NCBI GenBank assembly: GCA_042852035.1
Contig: BAAFHK010000001.1
Location: 480,001 to 512,000, forward strand
Reading direction: 5' to 3'
DNA from: Candidatus Saccharimonadota bacterium
GTDB lineage: Bacteria > Patescibacteriota > Gracilibacteria > BD1-5 > UBA2023
DNA length: 32,000 nucleotides
In this document: positions 5,158 to 28,419 of the stretch, piece after piece
How positions within the stretch are numbered: the first letter of the stretch is position 1
Layout: each line of letters starts with the position of its first letter
The notes under the pieces: generated by a model
Databases searched by the model: none
The model's input: the letters and a program-made list of their open reading frames with translations, nothing else
What the model was told of the DNA's origin: nothing
Translations under genes and position numbers: made by a program

Positions 5158-5226
5158 GCATTTCTCTACTGCAAAATGCTTGCAAAATAATCTTTTTTTT
5201 ATAAAATCCGCTCGCTTTCCTGATAT

Positions 5227-5301
5227 TGGGATATCGCCAAGTGGTAAGGCTCCGGACTCTGAATCCGGCATTCGTAGGTTCGAATCCTACTATCCCAGCC
5301 A
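5227..5301 (+). tRNA. tRNA-Gln, anticodon CUG, with encoded CCA
   Basis: Cloverleaf read by eye: acceptor TGGGATA/TATCCCA (U1:A72, as in bacterial tRNA-Gln), D arm GCCA-AGTGGTA-AGGC, anticodon arm CCGGA-CTCTGAA-TCCGG (anticodon CTG), variable loop CATTC, T arm GTAGG-TTCGAAT-CCTAC, discriminator G plus CCA. It aligns position by position with my recollection of E. coli tRNA-Gln(CUG). Confidence 0.93.
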
Positions 5302-5462: not shown

Positions 5463-6863
5463 TTAGGATACTTTAAATGATCCTGATTTCTCTATGTAAA
5501 CTTTTTTATCCTTGAGAATAATATCTGCTTGGATCATCCCGAGTATTTCTCGTTTCTCATCTTTGCTTCCGTTCGAGATCATATACTTCATATACTCTCT
5601 GAGGTTTATCTGTTTGGTAGATACGACATCTCGAGAGTCTTTTTTGAGGAGTTGGGATTGGAAGAGATTGTACCTTCGTATTTCTTCCTTGAGACTATCT
5701 CAGACAGATATGGTATTAATATCTATATCATCAAGCATTTCGAGGAGCTGTAATATGAGAGCATCTTCTCGGATCATAGGATTCTTGCACTTATGATCAT
5801 GGCACTTACTACAGTGGTAGTAGACGTAACTTCTCGGATCTTTTTGTCCAAGTATTTTCTTGAACTTTTCTTGAGCCGTAATCCCAGATCCACAGAGTCC
5901 ACACTTCATGATCTTCGTGAATTCGAAGTTCTTATTCCGTGGTCTATATCTTGGAGAGAGATTGAGCTGATCTTGTACTTCATCGAAGAGTTCTTTGGTA
6001 ATAATCGGTTCATAGTTTCCCTTACACCAATTCCCACTTCCTCTCGGGTATTCATACATACCGTAGTACATAGGATTATTGAGGATAGAGTATATAGCAG
6101 AGACGACCAGTGGTTTTCCACTTCGAGTCCTCATAGGAGTTTCCTCGAGGAGAAATCTCTGTACGGCTCGACCACTCATTCCTTCATGAGCTACTTTCTC
6201 GAATATAAGCTTTATATATGGAGCCCTCTCAGGATCTATAGCGATTTTTCAGCCATTTCTGAGATAGCTTCTTTCATTGGTATATCCAAGGGGTGCTTTA
6301 TGAGGGAGATGTCAGAGTTCTGCTTTGGTTTTGAGTCCTCGGATAACATTTATACTCCTGTTATCATTCTCGAGCTTTGCTTGAGAGCAGAGAATCATAA
6401 GGAGGAATTTCTCATTGGGAGCATTCTTGAATATCTGACCGTTGGTTCTGATTTCTTGAAGCTTTCCTTGATCCATGAGGTCAACCACCGACCCAAGGTC
6501 TCAAGCATTTCTCGAGAGTCTATCTGGAGCCCAGGAGAGAATCGAGTTATACCGTCATTGTCTGAGTCAATCAAGGAGAGTATTGAATCATTCGCGAGCT
6601 CCTGAAGCTTTCGCTGACTTACTCTCCCTGATGATCTCGACCACATCGAGTTTATCTCGTTCTGCTACCTTTCGCATTGCCTCGATCTGAGACTCTATAG
6701 AAAGGGCTTGTCGCTCATCATCTTCTGATGATTTTCGTACATAGAGGCAGTAGGTTCGGACCAGAGTCTCTTCTCAAAAGCTTCGAATGTTTTCCCAAGG
6801 ATTTCATCCTCCTGTCTGAGGTTTCTTGGATGATATTTTTGGTCTTTCGAGTGTTTCGATCAT
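5463..6863 (-). CDS. Large serine recombinase (resolvase domain + recombinase domain + zinc ribbon), 466 aa
   Basis: ATG at 6863 to TAA (complement of 5463-5465), in frame with track ORF 5700..6179. N-terminal catalytic region YCLYVRKSSEDDERQALSIESQ and SWAPDRLSRNAGDLGSVVDLM (Gly from TGA). Cys cluster CGLCGSG...YYHCSKCHDHKC. Coiled-coil tail. Confidence 0.9.
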
Positions 6864-6964
6864 AGTACTCAAGTTATTATCCTACAAGACACATATATGT
6901 ATTTTTCCACTTGGAAGTCTAGGCGAAAGTGAGAGAAAAGAGCATTAAGATGCTAAAAAGCTCA

Positions 6965-8476
6965 TTAAAACGTTCAAATATAGAAACAACGATCCTTTTT
7001 CTCGTAAACTGCCGTTACCATCATCGTAAGTGCATCCACAAGATCATCGTGCCGTTCCTTTCCAAATCCAACCAATTCTTCTACAAGCATTCTTCATGCT
7101 TCAGTATTTGGAAAACGAATCTTTCCAGAACGTATAAGGTCACTTATCAGAATCAGTCGCTCTCGTTTTGATCCTGCTGGCTTACGACCAACAATATCCA
7201 TTTTTGAGTTTTTCTGAAGGAATTTCTCCATAGCTATTTGGTAGCCGACGGTCTCTATATAAACCTCATGTTTCTTGAGATTATGAAGATCTGAATTCTT
7301 TTTATGGTAGAATTCAAGGGTCTCTACTGTCGTTGGGAAATCCATTTTGCTTTTGAATGCATCTATAATATAGATCATTTTATGCTCATGTTTTCCCCAG
7401 ACGGATCCTGTGACAAATGCTGTATAATCCGCTGAGTCTGACTCTGAAATAGCAAGGTCAACCCCTGTAGCGAGCTGATGAGGATGAGTCGGTTGAGTTT
7501 CTTCATATGTTTCGCTCCACCCACCTCTTTCTCTATGAACCATAGAGGATCATCGCTCAGGAAGGACATCATACCAGTGAATCCACTCTGGCTTAATAAC
7601 CTGTCATTCTGCTCCTGCATCCTCGAGAAGATACTCAGTTCTCCATGCAATCTCACTTCAAATCGTCTCCCTGAGTTCTTGTATATCTTCATCTGTGTAC
7701 CTCTCGCTCCAGAGGCACTTTCCGTGTTCATCGAGAAGTGGATATTTGCGAAATACTCATGACTTCTGTCCGCTTTCGATACGTTCTCTCATTCGCATGA
7801 GAAGAGAGTCTCTATGGAGCATATTTCATACGAGAAATACTCGAGTCTTCTTGATATCTCCAAGAGGTATGAGCTCTTTCGTAAACCATTCAAAAAGTTT
7901 ATCTCGTCATTCACGAGTTTTTACAGACTGGAGATCCTCGATATCATCTGCTATGATGAGTTCTGGGCGATGATTGCGATGTCGCATTCATCGAGTGGAT
8001 TGATCCACAGAAACCACGGTAATACGAGCCTGAGACCTCAGAAGTACAATGGAAGAGGAGTTGAATTCATCTCCATCATCTCGAAATGGTCAGAGATCTT
8101 TTTTGAGAAGCTCATTATTGAGAATTTCTTCCTTGAGGTTTCTCATATAGAGTTTTGCTTGTCATTGAGTCTGAGCTACAATAACAATGAACTTATTCTG
8201 ATGTTTCCCAAGAATACTCCAAATAGGGAATGCTGTATTGATTATAGTAGACTTTCCTGATCACCTGAAAGCCATAATCGTGGTAAAGCGATTTTTCTCA
8301 TCTTCGATAAAATGAAAGATTTCTTTGTGAAACCATGCCATAGGAGCAGTTACATAGTGAGCAAAGTAGATTTCGAAGAAAAGCTGAAAACTTTCTTTTG
8401 CAAGTTCTCTCCGTATCCCTGTAGATTGTTCTATAGCTTTGAGATCCTTTGGATCTATATGAAGTTGTTGACTCAT
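6965..8476 (-). CDS. terL: Phage terminase large subunit, 503 aa
   Basis: ATG 8476 to TAA (complement of 6965-6967), joining track ORFs 8261..8476 and 7094..7543. Walker A is MAFRGSGKST, with the first Gly encoded by TGA at complement 8261-8263. Walker B is PELIIADDIED. The nuclease half has GVDLAISESDSADYTAF and ERHDDLVDALTM. Confidence 0.88.
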
Positions 8477-8523
8477 AAATGAAAAATGTAAGTGGATATA
8501 AAAAATGTAGTGATTGGTATAAC

Positions 8524-8919
8524 TTATTCTTTGGGCTGATACGCTTTCAGAACTCTTCGAACAATCTCTTTTTGTTCTTTCGTGAGTTCTTCTCGTTCGG
8601 GAATATCGACTATCTCAAGCTTATTACTATATGAGGTATGACGAGATCTGAGCCAAAAAGCTATAGCGGACATATTTCCGTCTTTCACGGCTTTGAGAAG
8701 TTGGGATTCTGCAAGGTCATTCATCATTGCCACTCATTTTGAGAGAGCTTCTCTGGAAGCCTTTGCGAATGCTTTGTCAGATTGCATCCATCGGTAGTAG
8801 GTAGATCGACCAACTCCACTTTTCTCACAAGCAATCTGTACTATCGGAGTCTTTTCGAGATGTTCGAGAAGAAGCTTCTTCTCTTGCTTTATACGATTTT
8901 GTAGTCCTGTAGAAGTCAT
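8524..8919 (-). CDS. terS: Putative terminase small subunit / HTH DNA-binding protein, 131 aa
   Basis: Track ORFs 8734..8919 and 8524..8733 are joined by a single TGA. HTH IVQIACEKSGVGRSTYYRWMQ, then DGNMSAIAFWLRSRH, which is typical of small terminase-like proteins. It sits directly upstream of terL. Confidence 0.55.
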
Positions 8920-8964
8920 ATGATTTATGAATGAGGGATGGAAGAGGATTCAGAGTCCGATGCC

Positions 8965-9759
8965 TTACCCGAGTTTGAGAGCCGTTTTTCCTGTAAGCTT
9001 TTCCCATCGTTTGATGATACGAGCTATATAGACTGGATTTTGTTCTACCATCACACAGACTCGTCAGGTTTGCTCTGAAGCGATAAGCGTGCTTCATGAT
9101 CCTCAGAAGGGATCATATACTGTGTCTCATATTCGACTCGAGTTCAATATGAGTTCACGAAGGAGAGGAATAGGCTTCATCGTAGGATGAATTGTGTTCT
9201 TGCGAACTTTTGCGAATGCAAGAACACTCTTGGATTTTCCTCAGTAGAATGCATGTTTTCCATGCCAGCCATAGGCAATGAGTTCATGCTGAGGAAGATA
9301 ATCGAGCCGTCAGATAATCGCACTATCCTTGACCCATACGATGAGCTGAGTGAACTTCCATCAGGCTCGAAGCATTCCATCTCGGAGAGCGAATATCATC
9401 TTATCAGCATTAAAGATATAGCTCGCATTCTTCTCGCTGAGGTATGGAATGATTGGTCGTAGCCATCCCTCGGTGAATCATGCGTATTCTTCATCCGACT
9501 GAAATCCATCGTTTGCTATATCCACGTGCTCTTTTGTGCTTTCATTGAATCCTACTTTTGATGCCACATAGTCGATCCCGTATGGCGGATCTGTGAGGAG
9601 GAGTTCAATCCTTTTCCCTTTGAGGAGAGCATTGAGTGACTCGGTATCTCGAGAATCGGCACAAAGAAGGGTATGTTCTCCAAGGAGAAATCTATCTCCA
9701 TAAGCAATAGAAGCATCATTAGTTGAGTTTTCTTGCTGTATTTCCTGTAAGTTGTTCAT
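8965..9759 (-). CDS. DNA methyltransferase, beta class (N6-adenine or N4-cytosine), 264 aa
   Basis: ATG 9759 to TAA (complement of 8965-8967). Motif order is IV before I: LLTDPPYGI, then HPTMKPIPLLRELILNSS and VYDPFGGSGSTLIA (two Gly from TGA). The C-terminal tail IIKRWEKLTGKTALKLG is paralogous to the upstream gene. Confidence 0.88.
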
Positions 9760-11023
9760 AACGTTTAATAATTAGGTCTATAAAAATGGGTTCATGTTCC
9801 ATGAGGACAGCTCTTCGCTTAATCTGTTCACAGGCGATGAGCGTACTTCCAGATCATCCGAAGAGGTCGATTACCGTATCTCATACCTTTGTACATCGTT
9901 TTAGGGGCTTCTCATGGAGTGTTGGAGGTTTTTCCGTTGGATGCTCATACTCTCCGACGGAGAGTCGTTTCGCGAGCCAAATATCGAAAAGGTCGATGAT
10001 ATCTTCGAGAACTCTATTTCCGACTCAAACTTCTTTATCCAGCACCTCATGAAGATTTCGAAATTCTGTAGAAAGAGAGGGTTTTCACTTCGTGCCATAG
10101 ACACATGGCTCATATGCTCGGTTGAAGGCGACATTTGGTGTAGCATTCATATTATTTTTGATCCAGAGACATACCCTGCGGGGAAGTATCCCGAGTGACT
10201 CATAGAGAGACTGTATGAGTCCGATCATGTTCGGATCACACCACATGAATATATGAGTATCTTTCTCGGCATATCTGAGTCCGTTGTGAAGAGCTTTTTC
10301 GAGGAAGAGAAAATAGTCTTCTTTGGACTTGGTATCATTTGTTTTCTTTCCACCATAACTTTTTCATTGACTCAGTCCCTTTGAGTAATCCAGTCAGATA
10401 TTATACGGAGGGTCGTAGTAGAGCATGGATATATTCGAATCAGGAGGGATTGTCTCGAAGAGTTTTCGTACATCCTCTTCATTGGTCGAGTCTCCGCACA
10501 TGATCCGATGCTCTCCGAGGGCATAGATATCTCCGAGTTTTGCCGTAGGAGTTACGATCGATTCAAGTTCTTTTTCTACATCAAATCCATCCTCCTCGAC
10601 TCCGAGCATATCGTCCCAGATTGCGGAGAGTTCGGAGTTATCGAATCCGACATCTAGAAGGAGTCAGAGATCAAGATCCTTCAGGAGTTCAAAGTCCCAT
10701 TCTCACGTATTTTGATTGAGTCTCAGATTGAGCTCTTTTTCTCGGTCTATATCAAGGTCGAGATATATGACAGGAACTTCCGTCATACCGAGCTCTTTTG
10801 CTACCTTGAGCCTGAAGTGTCCTCCGATCACGATATTCATGCGATCAGGATGTCGATTCGCAATAATCGGATCCACTAGACCGTATCTCGTGATACTTTC
10901 TTTTAGATGTTCAACTTGTTTCGCAGTATGTTTGCGAGGGTTGTACTCGGCAGGGTTGAGGATATCTGCCTTCACATACACTATCTCATGTGAGATATCT
11001 GGAACGATTTTGTCTTGTGACAT
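9719..11023 (-). CDS. ParB-like nuclease domain fused to a beta-class DNA methyltransferase, 434 aa
   Basis: ATG 11023 to TAA (complement of 9719-9721), joining track ORFs 10703..11023 and 10394..10609. ParB-N region: NPRKHTAKQVEHLKESITRYGLVDPIIA...GGHFRLKVAKELG. MTase motifs: YYDPPYNI, EHPTEKPPTLHEKPLKRCTKVGDTVIDLFGGSGSTLIA. The 3' end overlaps the next MTase start by 41 nt. Confidence 0.88.
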
Positions 11024-11142
11024 AAGAGTGAAATAAAAGGATAGAATTTGAGGTGTCGACTCCCCCTGATAAAAACAGTAGATATGTCACATAGGTCTCA
11101 AAACTATTTTTGAATTTTCCTTATTAATCCTCTATTTTAAAA

Positions 11143-11173
11143 GAAAATCCCTCAATTTATTTTGAGGGATTTT
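11143..11173 (-). terminator. Rho-independent terminator after the MBL gene
   Basis: Perfect inverted repeat AAAATCCCTCAA / TTGAGGGATTTT with a 6-nt loop, flanked by T-runs on the - strand. It lies about 40 nt downstream of the stop at 11215. Confidence 0.6.
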
Positions 11174-11214
11174 GTTAGAAAAATTGTCAATGTTTGTCAC
11201 GCAATGAGTAGCTT

Positions 11215-12159
11215 TTATAAGAACTGATTAATAATAAAATCAATATCTTGGGTTTGTATTATTTCGGTTTCGGGTTTATCAAAATCTATAAATATGTGTC
11301 CTACTGAAGTCTTCACTGCATTTTGTTGTAAAGAATTCACTCATGAGGAATAGCTTGAACTATAATATCGTGTATCCACATCGGATCGATTCTCTTCAGA
11401 ATCTGAAGTCCTAATCTTCTCTGAAATAATATTCAAACGAGTCTTTCATCATTTTATAGTCTGAAAAAGTTTTTCAGAAAATGAAGTCTGAAGTCAATGG
11501 TGAGGCGCTAAGAGGTAGTCGACTCAGTCATTCATAAGAAGACTTTTAAATTCAGGCTTATTATCAATTAAGTATTCCATTCAGGATTTGAGTATGTCTC
11601 AAGGTATAAGTACAGTTTTATCTCAAACTTTAAAAAATAAAACCAAGCTTATATTATTAGCGTATCAGGAACTGATGGTAATATCAGATTCACATATTCA
11701 TGGTGGAATATAAAAAAGTGAGATATGTGGGATATCGGAAACTAAAGGTGCGTCTTGAGTGAACGGAATTCTCGTATTGCGCATATCACTTAAAATTATA
11801 TTTTTAAGATCCGTTTCTACTCAAAGTAAGTCTTTATTTACAATATGATGATCATTTTGATCGGGATGATCATTGGGGCATGTCATATAAACTCAGTGAA
11901 AATTTTCTCTGAATTTTAGATAATCACAAACATGATCTTTATCAAGATGACTTAAAAATAGTTGATTGATTAGAAACTTTCACTTATCATGACTTGTTGA
12001 TCAAACAAGAAATTTTGATTTACTTGCCAAGGGCTTGAGAAAGTTATCTACAGGAGAGAATTCGGCGTTCGCTCATAGATCAATTAAAGCTGTTCTTCCA
12101 TCAAATTCACAGTATGCAGAATGAGCTCATCATACATTAAAAATTACCAGTTTTCTCAT
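11215..12159 (-). CDS. Metallo-beta-lactamase-fold hydrolase (ComEC-type MBL-like), 314 aa
   Basis: ATG 12159 to TAA (complement of 11215-11217). It is invisible in the standard-code track because of many TGA codons. Motifs: VIFNVGGAHSAY...LIDLGAN, FLSHLDKDHVCD (HxHxDH-like), VLIPGDIL, LLAPHHGLQ (Gly from TGA). Confidence 0.8.
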
Positions 12160-12165
12160 AAAAAA

Positions 12166-12822
12166 TTAATCGTTAAAGGAAGTTAAAACAGTATTGAACA
12201 CTAAACTCTTAGCACAACCTCTCGATCTCCATAAGAATATTAGAGATAATAGTCCAAGTAAGATGGATAGAGTAGAATGACAAGCTAATATAGCAATCAC
12301 AGAAAGCAAAAAGAATGCAGTCATCATTACTCGGACAAATAGGTAACCTCTATTTACAGTCTTTATTTCATCACTTCCTCTAACTTGCGAATATAATTGC
12401 CAGAAGTAGTGTTGAGATAAGCTGATTCATGATTGAAATTGTTTACGTTTTTTTAGAAATGGAATATCTTTGTATGATTTATCGATTTCCTGTAGCTCAT
12501 TTGGGGGGATGTTGAGTTTCTCGATAATTACTCATCTCTTTTTATCTGATATAATTGGATTTCATTTATAAAGAAAAATTTCGGAAGGTCTTAGAAATTT
12601 GAAAAAGATATCAACAATACCCTCAATTTCATGAGCTATTGTTTGAAGAATCTCTCATGTAATGAATGCTACACAAAAGAATACAAAAGTATAAAAGAAG
12701 TCCAGTTTCTCATCCAGTTCGAAAGAAATTATATCTCAAAATAAAAATAGCAGAATTCATAAAAAAAATCCTCAAGGCATGATCTTTATCATAAGTTCAT
12801 CAATAGAAAATTTATCTAACAT
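12166..12822 (-). CDS. Hypothetical membrane protein, 218 aa
   Basis: ATG 12822 to TAA (complement of 12166-12168), starting 2 nt after the upstream stop. N-terminal hydrophobic segments: GFFLGILLFLFG, FFYTFVFFCVAFITG. C-terminal hydrophobic segments: VMMTAFFLLSVIAILA, LSILLGLLSLIFLW. A soluble middle region. No family recognised. Confidence 0.6.
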
Positions 12823-12824
12823 AT

Positions 12825-13634
12825 CTAAAATAGGTTATTAAAGCTCTTGTCCTGAAATTTTATTCTTGCGGTTTCTTTTGCTCAAAAATCAAATTGAGGG
12901 TTGTACTTCTTATTTCCAAGCATTAATGGTTCTCACTCAATTTGTAAAAATTCACACATTTCTTCGACAAATCTTTCTTTTGCCTTTCGAAACTTACTTG
13001 AGGCTTGTTCGTTATCCTCCCAACTAAACTTCCTTCCACCACATATTAGAAGAAGTATTTCTCAGGATTGAGAAATAGTTTTTGTAACAAAGTCCACAAG
13101 TCACATATCAGAAATTGTCAGAAATTTTATTTGCTTTCAGCTCAAAAAAATTTCAATTCTAGAATTCTCAGGATTTTTTTCGTCATATTCTACGAGATAG
13201 AATTTTATATTTTCCCAATTTGTTCATTCTGGAAGGGGTAGTGCTAGTTTTGCAAATCCTCTCTTATGATCAAGATGATTCTCAATTTCTTGCGTATGAA
13301 AAGCCATACTTGCCTCAATAAGCTTCTCTTTCTCTTCAGAACTATGATTAGGATATTTTTCTGTAACAAATTGTGAGGCTTGAGCCCTAAGATTACTAAT
13401 GGTAGTCATTCCATTTCCTTGATAATCCTCTCATACCCTCAATGAAGTCGTCTCGACTTTAGGTAAGGATATAGTTGGGATTTGAGAAGGTATCGATGTA
13501 TGGGTGGGCACAGGAGAATGTCATACAAATCTCTCTCATGATGGAATCGATGGAGTTCGAGAAAATCACCCACCAAAAGAGCTTTGTCATCCTCATGAAG
13601 TATTGAAAAATGCTTGTCGAAAAATGCTAGTCAT
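12825..13634 (-). CDS. Hypothetical protein, 269 aa, N-terminal extent uncertain
   Basis: Open from ATG 13634 to TAG (complement of 12825-12827), in frame with track ORF 13224..13409. The N-terminal 75 aa are Gly/Ser/Pro-rich low complexity. An alternative start is the ATG at 13409. No family recognised. Confidence 0.5.
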
Positions 13635-13644
13635 AGTTTAAAAG

Positions 13645-13869
13645 TTATCCTCTTGGTGGAAATGGATCTTTCCCATAAGAATTAGAGTTACTGATCTTAC
13701 CATCTCGGTTTTGGATCTTAAGTTCGGCTCATTTATTCTGAGCAATCTCCCGAGCTCGACTCATGGCTTCTGCTTTTGTATCTGTGTGAGCGGAATCACG
13801 TTTTGCTCAAGGCGAATGAATTTTCCATCCTTCTTCGCCATTTGGGGAAACCCATACTTGATTTGTCAT
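13645..13869 (-). CDS. DUF2188-like small protein, 74 aa
   Basis: ATG 13869 to TAA (complement of 13645-13647). MTNQVWVSPNGEEGWKIHSPGAKRDSAHTDTKAEAMSRAREIAQNKGAELKIQNRDGKI matches the DUF2188 pattern as I remember it. Confidence 0.65.
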
Positions 13870-13881
13870 AGTGTGTAAAAA

Positions 13882-14490
13882 TTAGAAAGTATTACTTGGA
13901 AACGAGCGAACGAAAATTCATTGGATTCTAAAATCTTCGTGAAGAATTATTGGTTTATGTTTTTCATTGGTAGAACTTGGATTGAGAGAAATATAATCAG
14001 TATCATAGTGAATTCGTTTAATAGTTGCTTCATCATCGATAAGTGCTACAACTATTTGTCATTCTGTTGCCGAATCGGCTGAACGTACCAAAATAAGATC
14101 ACCATCATTGATTCCTTCATTATTCATAGAATCTCCTTTTGCTCTCAGGAAGAAATATTTATTCGTTCCATATGCAATTCTGGTTGATACAGGTATCTGT
14201 GCTTCTATGTTTTCTTCTGCAAGAATAGGAAGTCAGCAAGCAATCATTCATACTAACGGTACATTTATGGTATTTTCATTCTGATGGTCTTCCACTACTC
14301 AAAGAGATATCTTCCCATCATGTCTTACGAGATATCCTTTCTCTACCAAGCTATCTACAATAAGCTGTACTGAACGAGTAGAGGCATATCATAAATCTGC
14401 CTGGAGCGAACGAACAGATGGCACTGATCAGTTCTCCCGATAATACAAGCGAATTATTCCTAATGCTTCTTTTTCTTTTGGCTTTAGCAT
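13882..14490 (-). CDS. lexA: LexA-type repressor (winged-helix DNA-binding domain + S24 peptidase), 202 aa
   Basis: ATG 14490 to TAA (complement of 13882-13884). N-terminal region: EALGIIRLYYRENGSVPSVRSLQADLGYASTRSVQLIVDSLVEKGYL. Cleavage region VPLVGMIACGLPIL, with the scissile Gly encoded by TGA at complement 14233-14235. Catalytic Ser in KGDSM and Lys in ATIKRI. Confidence 0.85.
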
Positions 14491-14545
14491 AAAAGTAAAC
14501 AGATTACACAATAATAATACGGGTATTTTAGAAAATGCAAATAAA

Positions 14546-14568
14546 ATAACACCTAATTTTGGTATTAT
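14546..14568 (-). terminator. Weak AT-rich hairpin after the Res-like gene
   Basis: ATAACACC (14546-14553), loop TAATTTT, GGTATTAT (14561-14568), one mismatch. On the - strand it is followed by a T-rich run. It starts 8 nt past the stop at 14576. Confidence 0.35.
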
Positions 14569-14575
14569 CGATGAT

Positions 14576-17500
14576 CTAGTTATCGAATATCATCCCCATC
14601 ATTCGTCCGATATAGTCTCCATGCTGAAATATCACATGACGTTTTTCAAAGTCATCCTCTGATTCCTGTCATTTCCAGTGCTGAATAGCCTCGCGTGCTG
14701 TTACTGATATGATATAAGCGTCGAGTATGACATTCGGATCTTGGACTGGGAGTTTTTTTAGCGTCTCATGGAGACGAAGCTTCGGATTATCGAAACCATC
14801 TTCCATATTGAAGAGTCATTTTGGATCTACAAATACGATATATTGTTTCTCACCATCGATTATCCAGATTATAAAATCAGGGTAAAAATTCTGAGCCTCG
14901 AAGAATCAAACTCATTTTTTACTGAGATTTCGGAGAAGATAGAACTCTTTTCCAGCAAGGGATTCGGTATTTCTCTCATAGTAGTTCTGCATCTCGAAGA
15001 CGAATTTTCTCTCTCATTCATTGAGTGGAACAGGGGAGATCACGGCGAGTTCAGCAGGGAAGTTTTTTCCGAGGGCAAGAAGAGGACTATAGAGATGTCG
15101 ATCGAAGTGAAGTGATGTAAATCATTGAGATAACTCATGATTCTGAAATATTCCATTTTTGATCTGTCACTCGAGCTCTCGTACAGCTTGGATAATGTCA
15201 GTCTCTTCAGAAGAGACTTTCACTTCATACGAAGTGAGGAGATTGGGATGATCTTCAGGGAGAAATGAGAACTCCATCTTGTTACGATAGTAGTGTCACT
15301 TCTTCTGATTATAGAGAGCATCAAAGTAATTCTTGATCAGAGCAATCGATACATCGTTCCATGCTTTTACATTTTCATATCTTGTCTCGAGTGATACTCA
15401 CGGGATATAAAGGGTATACCATTTTGGATTCATGAAGAGTTTCTCGAGATTCTCCTTCGATATAGATACGATATTCCATGATCTATCTGCTTTGTGGCGC
15501 TCCAGCTCGAAATACATCTTTTCCCAATCGATAAATGCGAGATGTTTTTCTTCTAATATGTGCGTTTCCCTGAAATCTACACTATTAGTACTTCATCCTG
15601 TGCTTTCGATGGCTTGTACTTTTGCATACCAGTCTACTGTTACCTTAATAGTATCTTCGAAATCGAGTTCTATTTTTTCACCAGACTTCTTGAAATCAGC
15701 TCCATCTTGAATCTTGAGATATTTGAGCTTTCCGATTTCTTCTTTTTTGAAGTTATTCTTGATTGGTATGGTGATCTCGTACATATCTTCCATAGGCATA
15801 CCTTCTTCTTCGAGATATTCTCGGAATTGTTGCATATAGTCTGATCGAACTCAAAACACACATAGTGTCTCGAGAAGACTAATCTCATCTCCTCAGAGAG
15901 ATTTTTCGATGATTCCTTCACGTTTGAGATACTTGCTTCGTCTGAGCGTATGATTGTATCACTTGAGGCGTACTCATCGACCGAAGAGCTGAATAATCTC
16001 AGATCATTCACTTCTACCAATATTCATAAGTCACATCGTCGATACTCTCCAGCTCGACCATCCTTCAGTGAATTTCTTCGAACCGATGAGGATATTCACG
16101 GCGCTTCATTTTTCATTGATCTTATGGAAGAGTGACTCAGAGAAGTCCCTCACTCCAGTGATCAGTCATACAGATTCACAGAGCTTCACGAGTTCGGCAT
16201 CATCTCAGACATTGATCACGCCAAAATAATCACCATTACCAGCCTTGAGTCATATCTCTCCATCCTGTCACTTCAAGTTCTCTATATGAAGATGGGATCA
16301 TGGAGTATTACAGTTGAATATTTTCTCGAGAAAATCAGAATAGAGTCTATCGATATCATATTCACCATTTCATCGAGAGAATGATTCCTTTATAGCACGG
16401 AAATGATTACGGAAAAGTGGTCAATTCTTCCCAATAATACCATCCTGTCAGGTGAGGATATTCTTGATTGCTCATTTTGCTTTCTTTTTTTCTCCGAGAA
16501 TACTCTGGAAGAACTGCAATATCTGTATCACATCGGATACTTTAGCTTTATTCTCGGTTCGCACTGCATTTACCGTTCCTCAGACGAATATGGAGAGAGG
16601 TTTTTCTATCTGGAATTGTTTCGCGACGGTTTTCTCTTTCTCATAGATGAACATCTGCTCATAGAATGTCATCATCGATCCGATGAGATATCCATACGTC
16701 ATATTCTCATCGTCAGTATCAGATATATTGAGGATTCGGTAATCCTTACCATATCCATCCTCGTAGAAATATTTATACGAATAGTCTATAAGTACGGATT
16801 TTGAGTATTCACTGAGAAGTTCAGTTCGTTTCTTTCCGCTCGATGCATGGATAGCCTGTCCGAATGTGGCACTATACTCAAAAGAGAATCCATTTCTCGA
16901 TAGTGTTGCTCGTTTCTTTTTCCATTCTTCACCACTTGCTCCACGATGTCATTCATCGACGAGTACGAGATTATTCCCTTCGAATGACTCTATCGCGACG
17001 GTCTTATCTCCAGCCTTATCTTCGAGCTTATGGATATCGATGATATCGATAAATCCCTTACGACTCGTAGAAGATGCTCTCTTATCGAAGAGTTCTCACC
17101 AAAATCATGAATCCTTGAGTTCTTTTTCATGCTGGCGAGAGAGTCACTCATTTGGAGTGAGTATGATTATTCTATTGAGTGAATCATGCTTTTCATACTC
17201 TTCTAAATAGTGTTGATATTGGAGTATATTCATGTGCATGATGAATGTCTTACCACTTCCAGTTGCGCTCCAGAAAGCCACCTTCGAGAGTTCTTCTAGG
17301 GTAAATAGTTGAATATCCTTAAAGGCACCACCTTCTTCATCTTGGAGCTTGGTGAGATAGGTGTTCAAGTCATTTAAGAGCTTATCCTTGTTCGCGAAGT
17401 ATCGATCAAGATATATCTCAGTAAAAAGGAGAGAAAGATATTGGAAATATTTCCATCGTAGTTTTTCATGGCGCTTGCTCGATATAGTCTCTGTATGACG

Positions 17501-17749
17501 AAAAATATTCTCATCATATTTTCTGAGAAGAATTTCTGGTATCTCATCACTCTGGTAAAATCTATCGATCAGAGTACTGAGATATCGAGAATTTCACTTT
17601 TCATTCCATCATTCGAGCTTGCTATCCTTGAGATCCTTGGTCAGTGAGGCGAAGTCATTGAGCCCAAAGAGGGAAAGGAGCCATCTATGAAGTATGAGAC
17701 CATCTTTGAGTTTTATTGGTGCTGATTTTGTGGTTTTCTGTGGTGGCAT
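14576..17749 (-). CDS. Res-like SF2 (DExH) helicase with a C-terminal PD-(D/E)xK-type nuclease motif, 1057 aa
   Basis: ATG 17749 to TAG (complement of 14576-14578), in frame with track ORFs 17144..17368 and 15593..15835. About 30 in-frame TGA by hand count. Motif I: FWSATGSGKTF. Motif II: LVLVDEGHRG (Gly from TGA). Late helicase motifs: [42 protein letters not shown]. C-terminus: FYPDFIIWIIDGEKQYIVFVDPKG. Confidence 0.88.
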
Positions 17750-17761
17750 ATAAATTTTTTA

Positions 17762-19126
17762 CTAAATGATTCTTATTCAGAAAGCTTTCCTTTTTGATTT
17801 ATCTCATTCTGATTCTTTAATGAAGAAGTATACTTTTGTTCATATCTTTATCAGATTAATCAAATTATTATCAGAGTCTCTATTTAAAATAAAATATACT
17901 GATGATTTATCTTGCATTCAGATGAATCAGTTTATTCATCTCTCATTATTGTTCATTATTTTTACAACTTCTCCTTCGAATCGTTCACTTCTATTTTTAG
18001 GTATATCCTGTTGTTTGTTTAGAGATTTCCAGTACTTTATCAAGTCATGCTTTATTACATCAAAACTTTCATCTTTTACTTCACTTCATTTTATTTTTCA
18101 TGATAAATTTTGTGGAATTTTCCACCCTTCACGTTTTCTTATGAGAGAAGACAGTATATAATGTTTTTCTGCAATTTCATCTTCTTTTTCATTAATTAGT
18201 AAATCTCCAAGTAGGATCATTACTCAAACTTTAAATTCCAAATCTCCATAATTATTCATTGCACGAATAGCATATTCAAATGCCTGTTTAGTATCTCACG
18301 TTAAGACATATATTTCTGCTAATTCTTTTTCAATAAACCAATCTTTCTTTTTTTCATAAATTTTTAGAAGTTTTTCAAGTGCAAGTTCAGTATTTCAGAG
18401 GTGTTGATTTGACAGTGCGATTCTCCGAGAAAACCAGATATCATTTCAGTTATGGAATTTCTTGATTATATCCAATGCAAGTGTGGATAACTCGGAACAT
18501 TCCTCATATTTTCCAGATTCTAGAAGCGCCTTAGTATAATATCAAAACCATTTTTCTTGATCTGATGCTAATTCAACTTCCTTCTGTTTCCCTTTGATGG
18601 TTGCCTCAATCATTTCATTTCTCGTAGAGAGATTCTCATATGGTATTTGCTTACATATCTCACAGATTTGTTTCCAATGTCACTTTTCATCATGGTTATC
18701 CAGTATTGATTTAAATACCTGGCTAAACGCTGATTGAGAAAAGTCATCTTTAATATTGCTTATATTTTTTAAGAAAAGAGTAATATTATTATCACTTATC
18801 AGATTTGAATCACCGATGTCTGATTTATTTTTAATAGATGCTTTGAGTTCATCGAAAAGTATCCATCCGTAACTTGTGAGGATTCTACTTGATAGCTTCT
18901 CATAAATATTTATAGAGAATTCGTCAAAGAATGAATGGGTAAAACGATGGTTCTTTGTTTTTCTAAGTGCAGTTAGTATGTTCGCAATCATATACTCATC
19001 TTTTCTTATCTCATCTGCGAAATCCGATTTATGAGACTTGAAATATGAAAGTACCTCATCAAAATTTTTATCTTTGATAAGTGATCAAATATGCGAACTA
19101 AAACTATAGTATGTATCCATAATCAT
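17762..19126 (-). CDS. Hypothetical protein: helical-repeat (TPR-like) body + C-terminal OB/cold-shock-like domain, 454 aa
   Basis: ATG 19126 to TAG (complement of 17762-17764), in frame with track ORF 18680..18991. It starts 5 nt after the NERD-helicase stop and ends 12 nt before the Res-like start. Repetitive helical region: YYTKALLESGKYEECSELSTLALD, ELALEKLLKIYEKKKDWFIEKELAEIY. C-terminus: RFEGEVVKIMNNNERGINGFIGMQDKSSVYFIL...IGTKVYFFIKE. The domain calls are my inference. Confidence 0.6.
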
Positions 19127-19131
19127 GAAAG

Positions 19132-22020
19132 TTATCCTAAAATATTCAAGACTTCTTGAAACTTATTCCATATTGCAATATCAGAATAATATAAAGCTTT
19201 TATACTTATAATTTGATTCTTTCCATTATATCGACACTCAATATCCAATTCTTGCTCATCTTGATATAACTTAATGAAATCTTGGTAATTATTCTGACCG
19301 ATTTGAACGATACGGAAATTATGATCGGAAGCAGTCTCCCATTTTTGATATATTGTTCGTTTCCAAATATCTTCCACATCATCGAAGTTATATTTTATAT
19401 TTCATAAAACTTTATTAAGTTCATCAAATAGCCATTTTTCTCAATTTTTGAGGATAGGAAGTTTGAACTTTCATTTTTTATCAAATCCAAATGCTAATGT
19501 GGCAAGTTGTGTTCATTTCATGAATTGGATATGAAGCTCCCATCATATGACTTCAGTTGACTTCAGTGAATAATTTGAATCTAGATGTTTCCGAATAAAT
19601 ACTATAAATTCTTCTATCTGATCTTCTTTTCTTATATCGTCCCCTCATTTTACTTGCATGATATATCTTTTTACTCGCTTATCTGCACTAGCAGCATCTT
19701 CTATGAGTAACTCATCTAATGGAGATATCGGTGAGTAGTTTATGAGATAAAGATTTTTTATTGTACGAGATATACCAGTATAGAGCCACTTAAAGTATTC
19801 AATATTATTCTTTCATAGTTCATACTTCAGATCAAATATAACTGTTTCCCAATGAAATGAAAACGTTTTATGCACGGTCATTGCCCATCAATATTGTAGT
19901 CGAAGAGTATTTTTATATTTCCCAAACTTAGAACTTGGATCTTTTCTGAGTTTATACTGGATACTTAACTTGAATTCCTTTTTCACATCTTTCTCAAGTC
20001 TCTTTTTTTCTTTTTCCTTTGTTTCTATTTTTCATTTTACCTTTTCTCATTGCTCTTTTTGTAAAGATAACTCGTCTATTTCATGAACTACGTTAATATA
20101 ATTCTCATCTTTTAATAATTTTTGGTATTCTTCAGATTCCTCGAATTTTCATCCTTCTTCTTTTATGAGTCAATTAAGAAAGATATGATAAGCCTGTTCC
20201 TCATCTTTTGATATATCACCTTTCTCACTGAGAAGACTATTCTCAAGTATTTTTACATTTACACTACTATTTGCTCTTTCTCACTTAAAGCTTACATCTC
20301 TAAAATAGAGTTTGGTTTTTCTGCCACTCTTTGTTTCTATAAGGAATTCCTCTCTTGGTTTAATATCTGTTATAGTTCACATCATTCATTTATCGATTTT
20401 ATATACAGAAGCAAATAAATCATTGCTTGTAGTCTTCATTTGATTCATCGTAACTACTCTATCATTGATATTGATAGAATCTCACGAGTGAAAAATATTT
20501 TTCTTTATCCACTTATTTTTTAATACAACATCTTGGTTTCAATATGCTAATATTACCGTATCATAATTTTCTACTGACATTCTTTCCTTGAGTAAATCTA
20601 TGGTAAAATTTTTGTCATCATTTTTCAGATGATGTATTGTATTTACTACCTCTGGAATCTCCATTTCTGAATATACATCTCAGACGATTTTTTCTTTTAG
20701 ATATGACGTAACATTACTAATAGCTGTTTTACTTTTCTGGATTCTTAGTTCTCTCATTGTTGGGATAAAGCCATAAGAATCATGAATATATTTTCAATTA
20801 AGTGCAGATTTTTCATCTTGAATAAGATAAGGATCTCAAATAAAAATTACCTTAAAGGCAGGTTTTTGCTTTATAAAGTCAACGAAGTCATGAAGAAGTC
20901 TTCCAGTTCAAAATCGAACATCATCAGACTCAAATAAAACATCACTTATAAGATGCGCTTCATCTATAATATATACACACTTATCAGCGTTATCATTCGT
21001 ACCTACTCAAATCAATTCTTTATCTATTGATACATCTTCTTGATCTCATTCATTATTTGTATCGCTAGTTTTTTCATGGAGTCATCAAGAGTATATATAC
21101 GAATAGAGACTATTCACTTTATATCAGCTTGCTTGATTGGTAAGACTATGAGCAACTCTTTGTGAAAATGCAAGAACATCAACCTGCTCATATCAAAATC
21201 TGTAGCTTTCATCTATGATATCCGAGATCAAGAAGCTTTTTCAGGTTCATGTCATTCAGGAAAGGATAAATATGTGAGATTCTGATTTGAGAAACTCACC
21301 AATATCTGATAACACTATCTTTTGATCATCAGTCAACTGCATATTGCTTTTCTCTGTAGAATTTTTTTCATTTGATGGTGTTCATACTCAGTATTCTTCC
21401 TTTGATTCATATGCATCAGCCATAAAATATAGCTTGAATGCATCAAATCCATCTTTTGATAGACATACAGATTCATCCTTTATGGATATAAAATCATTTA
21501 TTTTTTCTAGATAATTTGATTTATCTACAATCCCAAAGAAGTTTGTTTGATTCCCAGGTATATGTCAAACGAGTTCTATGATTTCTTGAAAGCAAACAAT
21601 TCGACGAACTCTATGTGGATCAAATATGTTTGGAAGAGTAATATGTTTTGATATGTGATCTCTATACAGTCATGTGAGCTTCCTTTTTTGATGGAAAAGC
21701 TGATCAAAAGGACTTAGTCTCGCTCCTCATTTAATATAATCTCATGTTTTTTCGCTTATCCATGCCCCTGTTTGGAAGTCAGATTCTTCTGGTAGCATGA
21801 CTTTTCCGCTATAGTTTTTGAAGTCTATAATACAAACAACATGCTCTGTTATAAGTAGAGCATCGATTTGTAGCAATGGTGCTTCATCTACTTCCGAAAA
21901 TCATATGAGTAAGCCATCTTTATTATGTTTTTCAAAAAGCTTTGCGAGATTATATGAAAACTCCCTAAAGAATGAGTTCTCATATCACCTTGAGGCTGTT
22001 CATTTTCTGATTTCAAGCAT
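19132..22020 (-). CDS. NERD nuclease-related domain fused to an SF1 (RecD/UvrD-like) helicase, 962 aa
   Basis: ATG 22020 to TAA (complement of 19132-19134). I checked it line by line as one open frame. NERD region: QIDALLITEHVVCIIDFKNYSGKV...SPFDQLFHQKRKL. Walker A: ILSGMTGTGKSF, with all three Gly encoded by TGA (complement 21256-21258, 21247-21249, 21241-21243). Walker B: CVYIIDEAHLISD. Also VIFIGDPYLIQD, and the C-terminal helicase motif GWAMTVHKTFSFHWETVIF...LYTGISRTIKNLYLI. An extra roughly 150-aa tail is unassigned. Confidence 0.85.
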
Positions 22021-22050
22021 TTGATGAAGTGGTTACAAAGTAATTTTCAA

Positions 22051-25000: not shown

Positions 25001-25092
25001 ATGATACGGTAGATACCGAAATCAAGATCAGCCTGATCGAGCATGAAGCATTCTCTGAGTGTGGCTATGAGGCGCTGGTAGTTTGATTCCAT
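22051..25092 (-). CDS. Large Mod-like beta-class DNA methyltransferase (N6-adenine/N4-cytosine type), 1013 aa
   Basis: ATG 25092 to TAG (complement of 22051-22053), in frame with track ORFs 24904..25092, 23551..24375 and 22282..22488. Motif [12 protein letters not shown] is at complement 23632-23643 (about residue 484). [14 protein letters not shown] and motif I LILDFFAGSGTTGHSV follow about 280 aa later. The long N-terminal region [32 protein letters not shown]... and the C-terminal region ...[19 protein letters not shown]... are unassigned. Confidence 0.9.
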
Positions 25093-25112
25093 AGAGAAAA
25101 GTAAGATGGTGA

Positions 25113-28082: not shown

Positions 28083-28218
28083 GGTTTTACCAAATAAAAC
28101 AGTGTGTAGATATACTTTTTCAAAAATAAATTATTAATAATACTTTTTTATTCTATATAAGCGTTTATATAAATTAGGATAAACTTGATAAAATAGTGTT
28201 TCTAAGTATATTCCTGAA

Positions 28219-28365
28219 GCCAGAATCTTATTTATTTTACTTACTTTTTAGTTGCCCATAAGCGATTAGAAGGGAGGATTGTATCCTCACCTCCTTTTGT
28301 TGCTTATGGCACTAAATGAGTAAGATTCTGGCGAATCAACGGGGATCGATCCTCCCTTTTTGTTT
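28219..28365 (+). promoter_or_regulatory. Structured leader or small RNA-like element with nested inverted repeats and a terminator-like hairpin, upstream of the GmrSD gene
   Basis: Perfect 12-bp inverted repeat: GCCAGAATCTTA (28219-28230) and TAAGATTCTGGC (28321-28332). It encloses GCCCATAAGC (28254-28263) / GCTTATGGC (28302-28310) and GAGGAT-tgt-ATCCTC (28274-28288). Next comes the hairpin GGGGA-tcga-TCCTC (28341-28355, one G-U pair) plus a T-run (28357-28364). SD-like AAGGGAGGA and CCTCC anti-SD-like strings occur repeatedly. Confidence 0.35.
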
Positions 28366-28419
28366 CGCCAGATACGATGATTTTGGTATTTACTTCTGTA
28401 GATACCTTTTTTGTTACCT

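Follow-up and report, generated by a model that had tools for sequence, protein, structure and literature searches.

We analysed a 32,000-nucleotide stretch of a Candidatus Saccharimonadota bacterium genome (contig BAAFHK010000001.1, positions 480,001 to 512,000), referred to below as the window, with a focus on five minus-strand genes at 11215-14490. They encode a LexA-type repressor, a DUF2188 protein, a protein with no family match (g3), a membrane protein (g4) and a ComEC-type hydrolase with the metallo-beta-lactamase (MBL) fold (g5). It is rather likely that these genes form the repressor-led cargo operon of a phage-derived integrative element, and not a host SOS or DNA-uptake operon. By DNA comparison, the operon consists of two parts: a constant head (lexA, the DUF2188 gene and the first ~74 codons of g3) and a swappable cassette (the g3 C-terminal domain, g4, g5 and the terminator). 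Because sister elements fill the same slot with known anti-phage systems, g4 and g5 are probably a new defence module, for which an anti-phage activity is proposed by analogy.

Constant head and exchangeable cassette

The features of the operon are as follows (aa, amino acids; HTH, helix-turn-helix).

14491-14575, minus strand: candidate lexA promoter/operator region, with a -35 TTGCAT, a -10-like TATTAT and a palindrome over the -10
13882-14490, minus strand: lexA, 202-aa LexA-type repressor with a winged HTH and a self-cleaving S24 peptidase
13645-13869, minus strand: DUF2188 protein, 74 aa
12825-13634, minus strand: g3, 269 aa, no family match
13413-13634, minus strand: g3 N-terminal constant part, ~74 codons, Gly/Ser/Pro-rich, up to the VETTS..DYQGN motif
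12825-13412, minus strand: g3 C-terminal domain, start of the exchangeable cassette, diverging along with the cargo
12166-12822, minus strand: g4, 218-aa membrane protein
11215-12159, minus strand: g5, 314-aa ComEC-type MBL-fold hydrolase, putative nuclease effector
11137-11173, minus strand: intrinsic terminator and 3' boundary of the cassette, placed by folding and by the restart of L123/L124 homology at 11145

The cassette boundaries are defined by the sister loci L123 and L124, which share 93-99% DNA identity with the window in four stretches, including 30719-28179, 14540-13413 and 11145-5276. By blastn, identity is 97% over the first of these, which holds a GmrSD-like gene and a non-coding block, 96.9% over the second, which holds the lexA promoter, lexA, the DUF2188 gene and the first ~74 g3 codons, and 93% from 11145 onward. 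No similarity to L123/L124 was found by blastn over 13412-11146. The sister slot holds a diverged g3 C-terminal domain, an SMODS/AGS_C cyclase and a SLATT_4 membrane effector, and is thus a CBASS system. In L120/L121, the same slot contains a PLD-SNF2 helicase and an Eco57I/MmeI-type enzyme. The same LexA clade also heads Thoeris (ThsB-ThsA-ThsB) in L067, CBASS in L041, L072 and L018, a PDC-M48-type MBL set in L065 and an abortive infection (Abi)-like Hypoth_Ymh protein in L075. A near-identical sister with CBASS in the same slot makes a better case for a defence function than location in a defence island usually does.

Complete Thoeris or CBASS systems lie co-directionally and directly behind LexA-type genes at L067:7604-9508, L041:7605-10108, L072:7557-9814 and L018:2236-5675, on elements with the same ParB-methylase/TerS-like/TerL/serine-recombinase backbone that is described below for the window. 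The GC content falls from 43-44% in the methylase genes (9000-11000) to 31% in the g4/g5 cassette (11000-13000), and stands at 29-31% at 18-21 kb, inside a defence operon inserted further upstream. The low GC content of both regions is consistent with separately acquired cargo.

Translation of 11215-14490 with table 11 gives only open reading frames (ORFs) of 41-61 aa. When TGA is read as sense, five long minus-strand ORFs appear, each with 7-17 in-frame TGAs, and with TAA and TAG as the only stops, long ORFs with many in-frame TGAs extend across the whole window. In the LexA hinge motif, VPLV[G]MIAC[G]LP, TGA stands for both glycines, and database homologues translated with TGA as tryptophan have W at positions of invariant G in the MBL family. 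For these two reasons, TGA is assigned to glycine in the source bacterium (code 25). Code-25 genes are stored in public protein collections as code 4, with TGA as tryptophan (P0003, P0005, P0121, P0196 and others), and tryptophan at invariant glycine positions makes for poorer profile searches and structure predictions of Gracilibacteria proteins.

Along the operon, from lexA to g5, the intergenic gaps are 12, 10, 2 and 6 nt. In the terminator, UUUUCUUUU follows a stem of 11-12 bp at about 11145-11173; the hairpin has a folding energy of -18.6 kcal/mol (z = -3.3), equalled by 1 of 200 shuffles. This hairpin was found by folding and is overlooked by a simple consensus terminator scanner. An initial annotation of the window had described five minus-strand genes, hidden from standard-code ORF calling and ending at a strong terminator. 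Its coordinates and gaps are exact under code 25, the short table 11 ORFs account for the hidden block, and the terminator is borne out by the hairpin. The gene identities that it proposed (LexA, DUF2188, an unknown, a multi-pass membrane protein and a ComEC-type MBL protein) are supported by profile and structure searches, as are, by Pfam and PADLOC, phage-derived genes downstream and a defence operon upstream. The description of the five genes as one operon stands as far as gaps and terminator are concerned, but not as one evolutionary unit, given the division into constant head and swappable cassette.

The g3 protein is a chimera that straddles the cassette border. Its N-terminal constant part contains invariant motifs of the g3 alignment, is rich in TGA codons, and is 96.9% identical to L124 at the DNA level up to 13413, beyond which there is no similarity. 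The recombination breakpoint falls immediately after the VETTS..DYQGN motif, a position that recalls the demarcation motifs of polymorphic toxin loci. The variable C-terminal part (~190 aa) is 34-40% identical to g3 copies linked to other cargo, and its divergence follows the downstream cargo. No match to g3 was found in Pfam, PHROG, NCBIfam or PADLOC, nor a sequence match in the PDB. Close homologues number only 11; an exhaustive profile search recovered about 300 remote homologues of the C-terminal domain, characterised by the motif P-x-G-T-x-W-E-D-I ... M-G-F-x-D ... P-N-x-Q-W ... D-P-F. Pfam domains were seen in 0 of the 10 remote homologues scanned, and the contigs that carry these homologues are too short to show gene context.

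The g4-g5 module

The g5 protein has an MBL fold. Its AlphaFold2 (AF2) model (pLDDT 86, pTM 0.88) has the ComEC MBL domain 9ic4 as top Foldseek match in the PDB (E 3.9e-9, TM-score 0.61/0.70), and the best 50 of its 77 PDB structural matches at E <= 0.001 are all MBL-fold. The sequence carries the motifs SHLDKDH and APHHG. Fold, motif II (H-x-[HD]-x-D-H) and downstream ligands together place g5 in the MBL superfamily, and the metal ligands (D27, H71, D73, D75, H76, D188, H220, H221 and H288) are invariant across 15 diverse homologues from unrelated phyla, as the initial assignment of a ComEC-type hydrolase would have it. The PDB profile match is ComEC/Rec2 9vc9 (E 1e-4), and ComEC/Rec2 chains are the only sequence relatives in the PDB. 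In PADLOC, g5 matches PDC-M48B (PDLC04675) at 1e-10 and LmuA-MBL at 2e-7. The protein is soluble and has no signal peptide. Its family numbers at least 183 homologues at 52-64% identity and is found in phyla of the candidate phyla radiation (CPR), Flavobacteriia, Gammaproteobacteria, Bdellovibrionales, Verrucomicrobia and a Woesearchaeota metagenome-assembled genome (MAG).

Several named assignments were rejected. As a 6A-MBL of a ubiquitin-like Bil-type system, g5 scores 16.4 bits against 220 for NF058524, and the E1/E2/JAB partners are absent. As a ComEC equivalog, it scores 22.9 bits against a TIGR00361 cut-off of 190. The g4-g5 pair as a whole has neither the Competence channel nor the OB (DUF4131) domain of ComEC/Rec2, and g4 has no Pfam or PDB similarity.

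The g4 protein has four hydrophobic helices, arranged 2+2 around a ~95-aa Lys/Arg-rich loop, as judged by hydropathy. Its structure was modelled via the standard-code orthologue P0132 (AF2, pLDDT 89). The family of 75 homologues has no name and no Pfam domain, and is sharply conserved: E57, Q60, E67, W198 and R199 are invariant and H64 is nearly so. No structural match was found in the PDB or among BFVD viral structures, and no resemblance to ComEC was seen, with the full-length ComEC entries 9vc9, 9vcb and 9vcf included in the PDB set. We predict that g4 is an inner-membrane protein with its conserved loop on the cytoplasmic side. Since g5 resides in the cytoplasm as well, g4 is a plausible partner for it.

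The two genes are a tightly coupled, co-inherited unit. Their spacing is -4 to +6 nt in 18/18 loci that carry g4, and their pairwise divergences are correlated (Mantel r = 0.89, reached in 0 of 2000 permutations). The pair's range takes in CPR phyla, Gammaproteobacteria and a Woesearchaeota MAG. It is nested in Type I restriction-modification (R-M) operons in L005 and L038, and elsewhere outside LexA elements it lies behind Xre-methyltransferase (MTase)-DUF262/HNH genes. Loci without g4 have a different small protein with 2+2 transmembrane (TM) helices beside the MBL gene (c13, c21, and singletons in L027 and L035), with no detectable homology to g4. Homology among these partners (c1, c13/M48A, c21 and the 198-aa protein of L027) was examined and rejected: hhalign gave probabilities of at most 5%, so the proteins are analogous and not demonstrably homologous. 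For c1 against c13, the probability is 0.3%, and the 2+2 TM topology is the only shared feature.

The closest named system is PDC-M48. PADLOC assigns c13 to PDC-M48A (4e-42) and the MBL paralogue that goes with it to PDC-M48B (up to 4e-129), and true PDC-M48 pairs adjoin g5 homologues in L025/L026 and L014/L024. Like PDC-M48, the g4-g5 module combines a small polytopic membrane protein with an adjacent ComEC-like MBL protein, and sits within defence operons, those of Type I R-M among them. Unlike PDC-M48, its MBL protein is a distant M48B paralogue, its membrane protein lacks profile similarity to M48A, and in the window the pair is driven by a LexA-led operon. The MBL paralogues beside g5 homologues match the PADLOC Avs1a, LmuA and RTasMBL models. 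On a phage contig from IMG/VR (L035:8364-12095) with tail-fibre-like and amidase genes, a TM protein accompanies a g5-family MBL and an MBL paralogue whose gene is divided between two ORFs; a lipoprotein-like SNase plus lamin-tail-domain nuclease comes next.

Defence-island MBLs that are remote relatives of ComEC and RNase J act as latent dsDNA nucleases dependent on Zn (PMC12642450), and the ComEC MBL domain is itself cited there as a nuclease (Silale et al. 2021, cited in PMC12642450). On the strength of these relatives, g5 may act as a DNA nuclease effector. Its best structural and PDB-sequence match is the ComEC/Rec2 MBL domain (9ic4), a membrane-linked metal-dependent nuclease with which it shares the H-x-D-x-D-H, NN-S, GD and HHG motifs. 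It differs in being stand-alone and cytoplasmic, in sharing only about 14% sequence identity, in lying outside competence loci, and in having a membrane partner unrelated to the ComEC channel. The MBL death effectors of Avs, trypsin and caspase modules are likewise defence-island proteins remotely related to ComEC, but they are activated via site-specific cleavage by a partner protease (PMC12642450). No partner protease is present here: LexA, through its self-cleaving S24 domain, provides the only peptidase, which most likely acts on transcription.

The repressor, the element and its flanks

The LexA protein passes the TIGR00498 equivalog cut-off (146.6 bits against 110.95) and matches Peptidase_S24 (PF00717, 6e-29) and LexA_DNA_bind (PF01726, 28 bits against 23.7). 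Its Cys-Gly bond aligns with the Ala84-Gly85 cleavage site of E. coli LexA, and the catalytic dyad is retained as the Ser of GDSM and the Lys of TIKR, so that the winged HTH, the S24 peptidase with its Ser/Lys dyad and the cleavage site are all in place. Gracilibacteria and Bdellovibrionales copies are 42-44% identical to each other and 31-33% identical to E. coli LexA. Full-length LexA homologues are also carried by phage contigs. No DNA-repair genes were found in the 32-kb window.

A promoter-like site lies upstream of lexA at 14541-14514, and its -35 TTGCAT is kept in L001, L008 and L039. The initial annotation had pointed to 14491-14575 as the place for a palindromic operator, and a 12-bp palindrome, AATAC-CC-GTATT, does lie there, at plus-strand 14516-14527, overlapping the -10 element. 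It occurs once in the window at 0 mismatches. The region provides a candidate LexA operator site, AATACCCGTATT. About 24 of 68 related loci have a site of the form ATAC-N(1-5)-GTAT no more than 40 nt from the start of lexA; the N5 form is present in 8 of 64 regions, with 0.12 expected, and the N2 spacing is common to Gracilibacteria lexA copies. We therefore infer a candidate operator at the lexA -10 from its sequence and position. Over the whole window, ATAC-N(1-5)-GTAT occurs at 10 sites against 1.5 expected, a number reached in 0 of 100 shuffles; this excess is mostly intragenic and may reflect codon or oligonucleotide bias, not operators.

The DUF2188 protein matches PF09954 (7e-19), PADLOC PDC-S16 (3e-30) and phrog_3220, and is 98.5% identical to the L123 copy. 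Its gene stands directly behind lexA in at least seven other loci and in L018, the pair recurring in L041, L042, L048, L053, L057, L061, L064, L075, L018 and Gracilibacteria loci. The LexA proteins paired with DUF2188 are only about 25-55% identical across lineages. Recurrence of the pair across such diverged LexA lineages suggests that DUF2188 works with the repressor and not with a particular cargo.

Downstream of the operon lies the backbone of the element, and upstream lie a defence operon and a non-coding block.

5463-11101, minus strand: element backbone (Pfam)
9719-11101, minus strand: ParB_N+N6_N4 methylase (Pfam)
8965-9759, minus strand: second methylase (Pfam)
8524-8919, minus strand: TerS-like HTH gene (Pfam)
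6965-8476, minus strand: large terminase TerL, full length (Pfam)
5463-6872, minus strand: large serine recombinase (Pfam)
5227-5301, plus strand: tRNA-Gln(CUG), at the recombinase end of the element (ARAGORN, Rfam)
14576-28082, minus strand: 13.6-kb defence operon between the non-coding block and the lexA promoter (PADLOC, Pfam)
28179-28410, minus strand: non-coding block of ~235 nt at the head of the island (conservation and fold)

With an integrase, a repressor, packaging genes and varied genomic contexts, the element has the features of a phage satellite or integrative element. Its TerL is 27% identical to a Paenibacillus phage TerL over 89% of its length. No capsid, tail or replication genes were recognised in the element. 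The order lexA-(DUF2188)-g3-g4-MBL-ParB-MTase-MTase-TerS-like-TerL-(serine recombinase) is kept in L001, L008, L039 and an ENA contig; over its lexA-to-MBL portion it is also kept in L002, and partially in L003 and L009, which supports the expectation that gene order would be conserved in relatives. The flank upstream of lexA varies, being the defence operon in the window and a divergent Type III R-M system or a 1,661-aa helicase in relatives, and the element gene set has different flanks in L001, L039, L120 and L123. In every recoded relative with enough flank, lexA accompanies the ParB-MTase/TerL backbone while the surroundings differ. The backbone also stands beside a LexA/S24 gene in Bdellovibrionales (L014, L024), in a MAG labelled Gammaproteobacteria (L021), in Patescibacteria (L018) and in metagenome contigs (L065, L067, L070, L072, L075).

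The element spans at least 5223-30835 and ends at tRNA-Gln. Homology between the window and L001 stops at 5223, by the tRNA; L001 has tRNA-Gln(UUG) in the same place and rplI beyond it instead of relA. A search for a direct repeat of the tRNA-proximal sequence that could serve as att site found no convincing one. An inverted 14-nt copy of the tRNA anticodon arm (CGGACTCTGAATCC) is present at 8946-8959, between the TerS-like and methylase genes, where about 0.08 would be expected by chance. At the other end, L123 homology runs to at least 30835. The left island boundary was not found in the window, and the 184-aa and 346-aa flank genes of L001/L120 are absent. Between 30500 and 32000, neither code gives a convincing ORF, and tRNAs, notable repeats and Rfam matches (even with the limit at E <= 0.1) are all lacking.

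The upstream defence operon encodes a DrmD-like SNF2 helicase (989 aa), a Type III methylase (1013 aa), a Type III Res protein (1057 aa), the PDC-M16A NERD-helicase-TBP/TOTE protein (962 aa) and the PDC-M16B TPR-cold-shock protein (454 aa), the PDC-M16 candidate being nested within the Type III R-M system. The operon is missing from L124, where 21 nt separate the lexA promoter from the non-coding block; it was inserted into the element.

Copies of the non-coding block in the window, L001, L008 and L123-L125 (L001:5316-5554, L008:6613-6851 and L123:3277-3513) agree at about 96% of positions, although protein identity between these elements is only 38-80%. On one side the block is invariably bordered by a divergent defence gene, on the other by the start of the lexA-side operon. 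The block folds into three long hairpins (-69.9 kcal/mol, z = -6.8), and none of its ~10 substitutions touches a paired position. With all 66 pairs invariant, covariation is uninformative. Three G-U pairs exist on the operon-sense strand only, and a GCCAG segment is able to pair with either of two CUGGC segments. It belongs to no Rfam family, and an exact-match search of viral contigs returned nothing. The block's role in the element may be that of a regulatory RNA or of a DNA site. Divergent from it, at 28411-30483 on the plus strand, is a DUF262/GmrSD-like gene (PADLOC HEC-06/Orf5/SspE-like) that is 97-99% identical to L123/L124 at the DNA level and interrupted there by a DDE transposase in some copies.

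Proposed mechanism, alternatives and significance

We propose that the LexA homologue would bind the palindrome over its own -10 element and keep the operon at a low level. DNA damage, or RecA-ssDNA filaments formed during phage replication or prophage induction, would then trigger self-cleavage at the Cys-Gly bond and derepress the operon. The cytoplasm-facing loop of g4 would partner g5 in a complex that forms a membrane-associated, metal-dependent nuclease effector, which would destroy invading DNA, or cellular DNA in an abortive-infection mode. The initial annotation had suggested an SOS-triggered effector pair; this fits the Thoeris, CBASS and MBL cargo headed by the same LexA clade, and remains an inference. 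Its other suggestion, an immunity region of the adjacent mobile element, agrees with a conserved element that unites the lexA block with methylases, terminase and recombinase. The two ideas are compatible.

Several observations weigh against this interpretation. Every step of the mechanism is computational, and with a view of 32 kb, lexA may also be the host SOS regulator. The N2 spacing of the window's palindrome is the minority form among related loci, and a consensus scan detected no terminator between the upstream defence operon and lexA, so read-through could blur LexA control. The g5 protein scores 17.8 bits against a Pfam Lactamase_B threshold of 22.7, and its second-best fold neighbour is the cell-wall phosphorylcholine esterase Pce, which makes a non-DNA phosphodiester substrate possible. 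Its match to PDC-M48B is partial, at 39 bits where true members score 276-428, and neither g4 nor its orthologue P0132 matches the PDC-M48A models. PDC-M48 is itself a computational candidate, listed only as 'assign as candidate' in the embedded-defences preprint (bioRxiv 10.1101/2024.01.29.577857, supplement). Finally, no member of the g5 MBL family was found in cultured phages or PLSDB plasmids.

The alternatives differ in whom the operon serves and in whether LexA controls it. The module could serve the element itself, with g4 and g5 aiding induction, interference with a helper or holin-like plus esterase lysis after LexA cleavage, or degrading host or helper-phage DNA in favour of TerS/TerL packaging, a satellite-type interference like that of the PLE nuclease NixI. 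The MBL module is tied to the same backbone in four lineages (Gracilibacteria, Bdellovibrionales L014/L024, L021 and L018), packaging genes are present while capsid and tail genes are not, Pce is the second-best fold match, and the IMG/VR phage contig has an MBL-TM-MBL set beside an amidase. We nevertheless consider this unlikely: the pair also occurs without terminase or recombinase, in Type I R-M operons or after MTase and DUF262-HNH genes, the slot in sister elements holds host-protective CBASS or restriction genes, and the lack of a signal peptide on g5 makes a cell-wall substrate improbable. That lexA is instead the chromosomal master regulator, with DNA processing or repair under SOS control downstream and the element genes as mere neighbours, would suit a protein that passes the equivalog threshold with all catalytic features, small CPR genomes that may hold a single lexA, and the many LexA relatives (35-50% identity) with no element genes nearby. 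This is quite unlikely, since lexA keeps company with the ParB-MTase/TerL backbone in changing left flanks and chromosomal surroundings, a 97%-identical sister has CBASS or R-M genes in place of the downstream ones, the Gracilibacteria and Bdellovibrionales proteins share the backbone and are closer to each other than to E. coli LexA, and phage contigs bear full-length homologues.

A further alternative grants the element its repressor but takes the linkage as adjacency, with LexA controlling itself and the excision and packaging genes and the cassette expressed constitutively from an internal or read-through promoter. The pair does occur in other contexts without LexA, the 13.6-kb upstream operon runs into lexA with no terminator detected, and promoter-like hexamers are present inside the block, at chance frequency. 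The short gaps with a single terminator at the end, together with diverse cassettes that in many lineages always lie co-directionally right behind lexA, make this highly unlikely, and a cassette whose 5' boundary lies inside g3 brings no promoter of its own. The remaining possibility, raised in the initial annotation, is a split ComEC, a minimal DNA-uptake or processing machine for DNA scavenging by CPR bacteria. It draws on g5, which comes nearest to the ComEC MBL domain among solved structures and among PDB sequences, and on a polytopic membrane protein encoded 6 nt upstream. Its probability is very low given the TIGR00361 score, a g4 that resembles nothing in the PDB and has no Pfam Competence domain, the missing OB/DUF4131 domain, and a patchy cross-phylum distribution centred on defence islands and R-M operons with no competence genes nearby.

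The reading as LexA-led cargo of an integrative element can be placed among known systems. Phage satellites and integrative conjugative elements (ICEs) such as P4/P2 hotspots, phage-inducible chromosomal islands (PICI), PLE and the SXT ICE with its SetR repressor carry exchangeable anti-phage cargo at fixed positions. Like them, the element is small and integrative and combines packaging genes with an integrase and a CI/LexA-type S24 repressor. It differs in its serine, not tyrosine, recombinase, in cargo that lies inside the repressor's own operon, in having TerL and a TerS-like gene with no recognisable replication or capsid genes, and in its occurrence in CPR (code 25) and Bdellovibrionales. 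The anticodon nuclease PrrC, a single ABC-ATPase/RNase protein, is embedded in the EcoprrI Type I R-M operon. It parallels g4 and g5 in L005 and L038 as an effector nested between hsd genes, but is unrelated to them in sequence and fold. In CapH/CapP, a repressor cleaved after DNA damage controls CBASS, DISARM and DUF2188-containing operons (Lau et al., bioRxiv 10.1101/2022.04.27.489752). Here, too, a cleavable repressor stands in front of DUF2188 and a defence cassette, as its relatives stand in front of CBASS and Thoeris. CapH/CapP, however, consists of separate, divergently transcribed HTH-repressor and Zn-metallopeptidase genes, whereas the window has a single LexA, an HTH fused to an S24 serine peptidase, as the first gene of the operon itself. 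Membership of the CapH/CapP module was rejected for this single co-directional protein, and the resemblance is functional only.

Taken singly, LexA, DUF2188, an MBL effector, damage-gated defence and a mobile element with a defence cassette are all of known kinds. In the literature searched, and to our knowledge, their combination is undescribed. What would be new is an equivalog-grade LexA heading a swappable defence operon, with a chimeric g3, a TM+MBL pair distinct from PDC-M48 and code-25 CPR hosts. A wider reading, which is possible and which we offer tentatively, is that the window belongs to an undescribed cross-phylum family of small TerL/TerS-like/ParB-methylase/serine-recombinase elements with a LexA-gated 'expression slot', found in Gracilibacteria, other CPR, Bdellovibrionales and others. 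Whole anti-phage systems (Thoeris, CBASS, R-M-like, TM+MBL) would be swapped into this slot by recombination, with crossovers at the conserved g3 peptide motif and at the terminator. The variable C-terminal domain of g3 would serve as a cassette-specific adaptor or sensor, TM+MBL would be a new membrane-anchored nuclease defence, and the folded block would be a new regulatory RNA of the element.

The 4-TM plus ComEC-like MBL module, with at least 183 MBL and 75 g4 homologues, is a widespread, uncharacterised candidate defence system. The cassette boundaries, the chimeric g3 and the folded non-coding block offer handles on how defence cassettes are exchanged and regulated. The operon would extend the idea of DNA-damage-gated immunity, as known from CapH/CapP, to classical LexA-type repressors, and it brings into view a mobile-element and defence biology of code-25 CPR bacteria that standard annotation, reading TGA as stop or tryptophan, misses.

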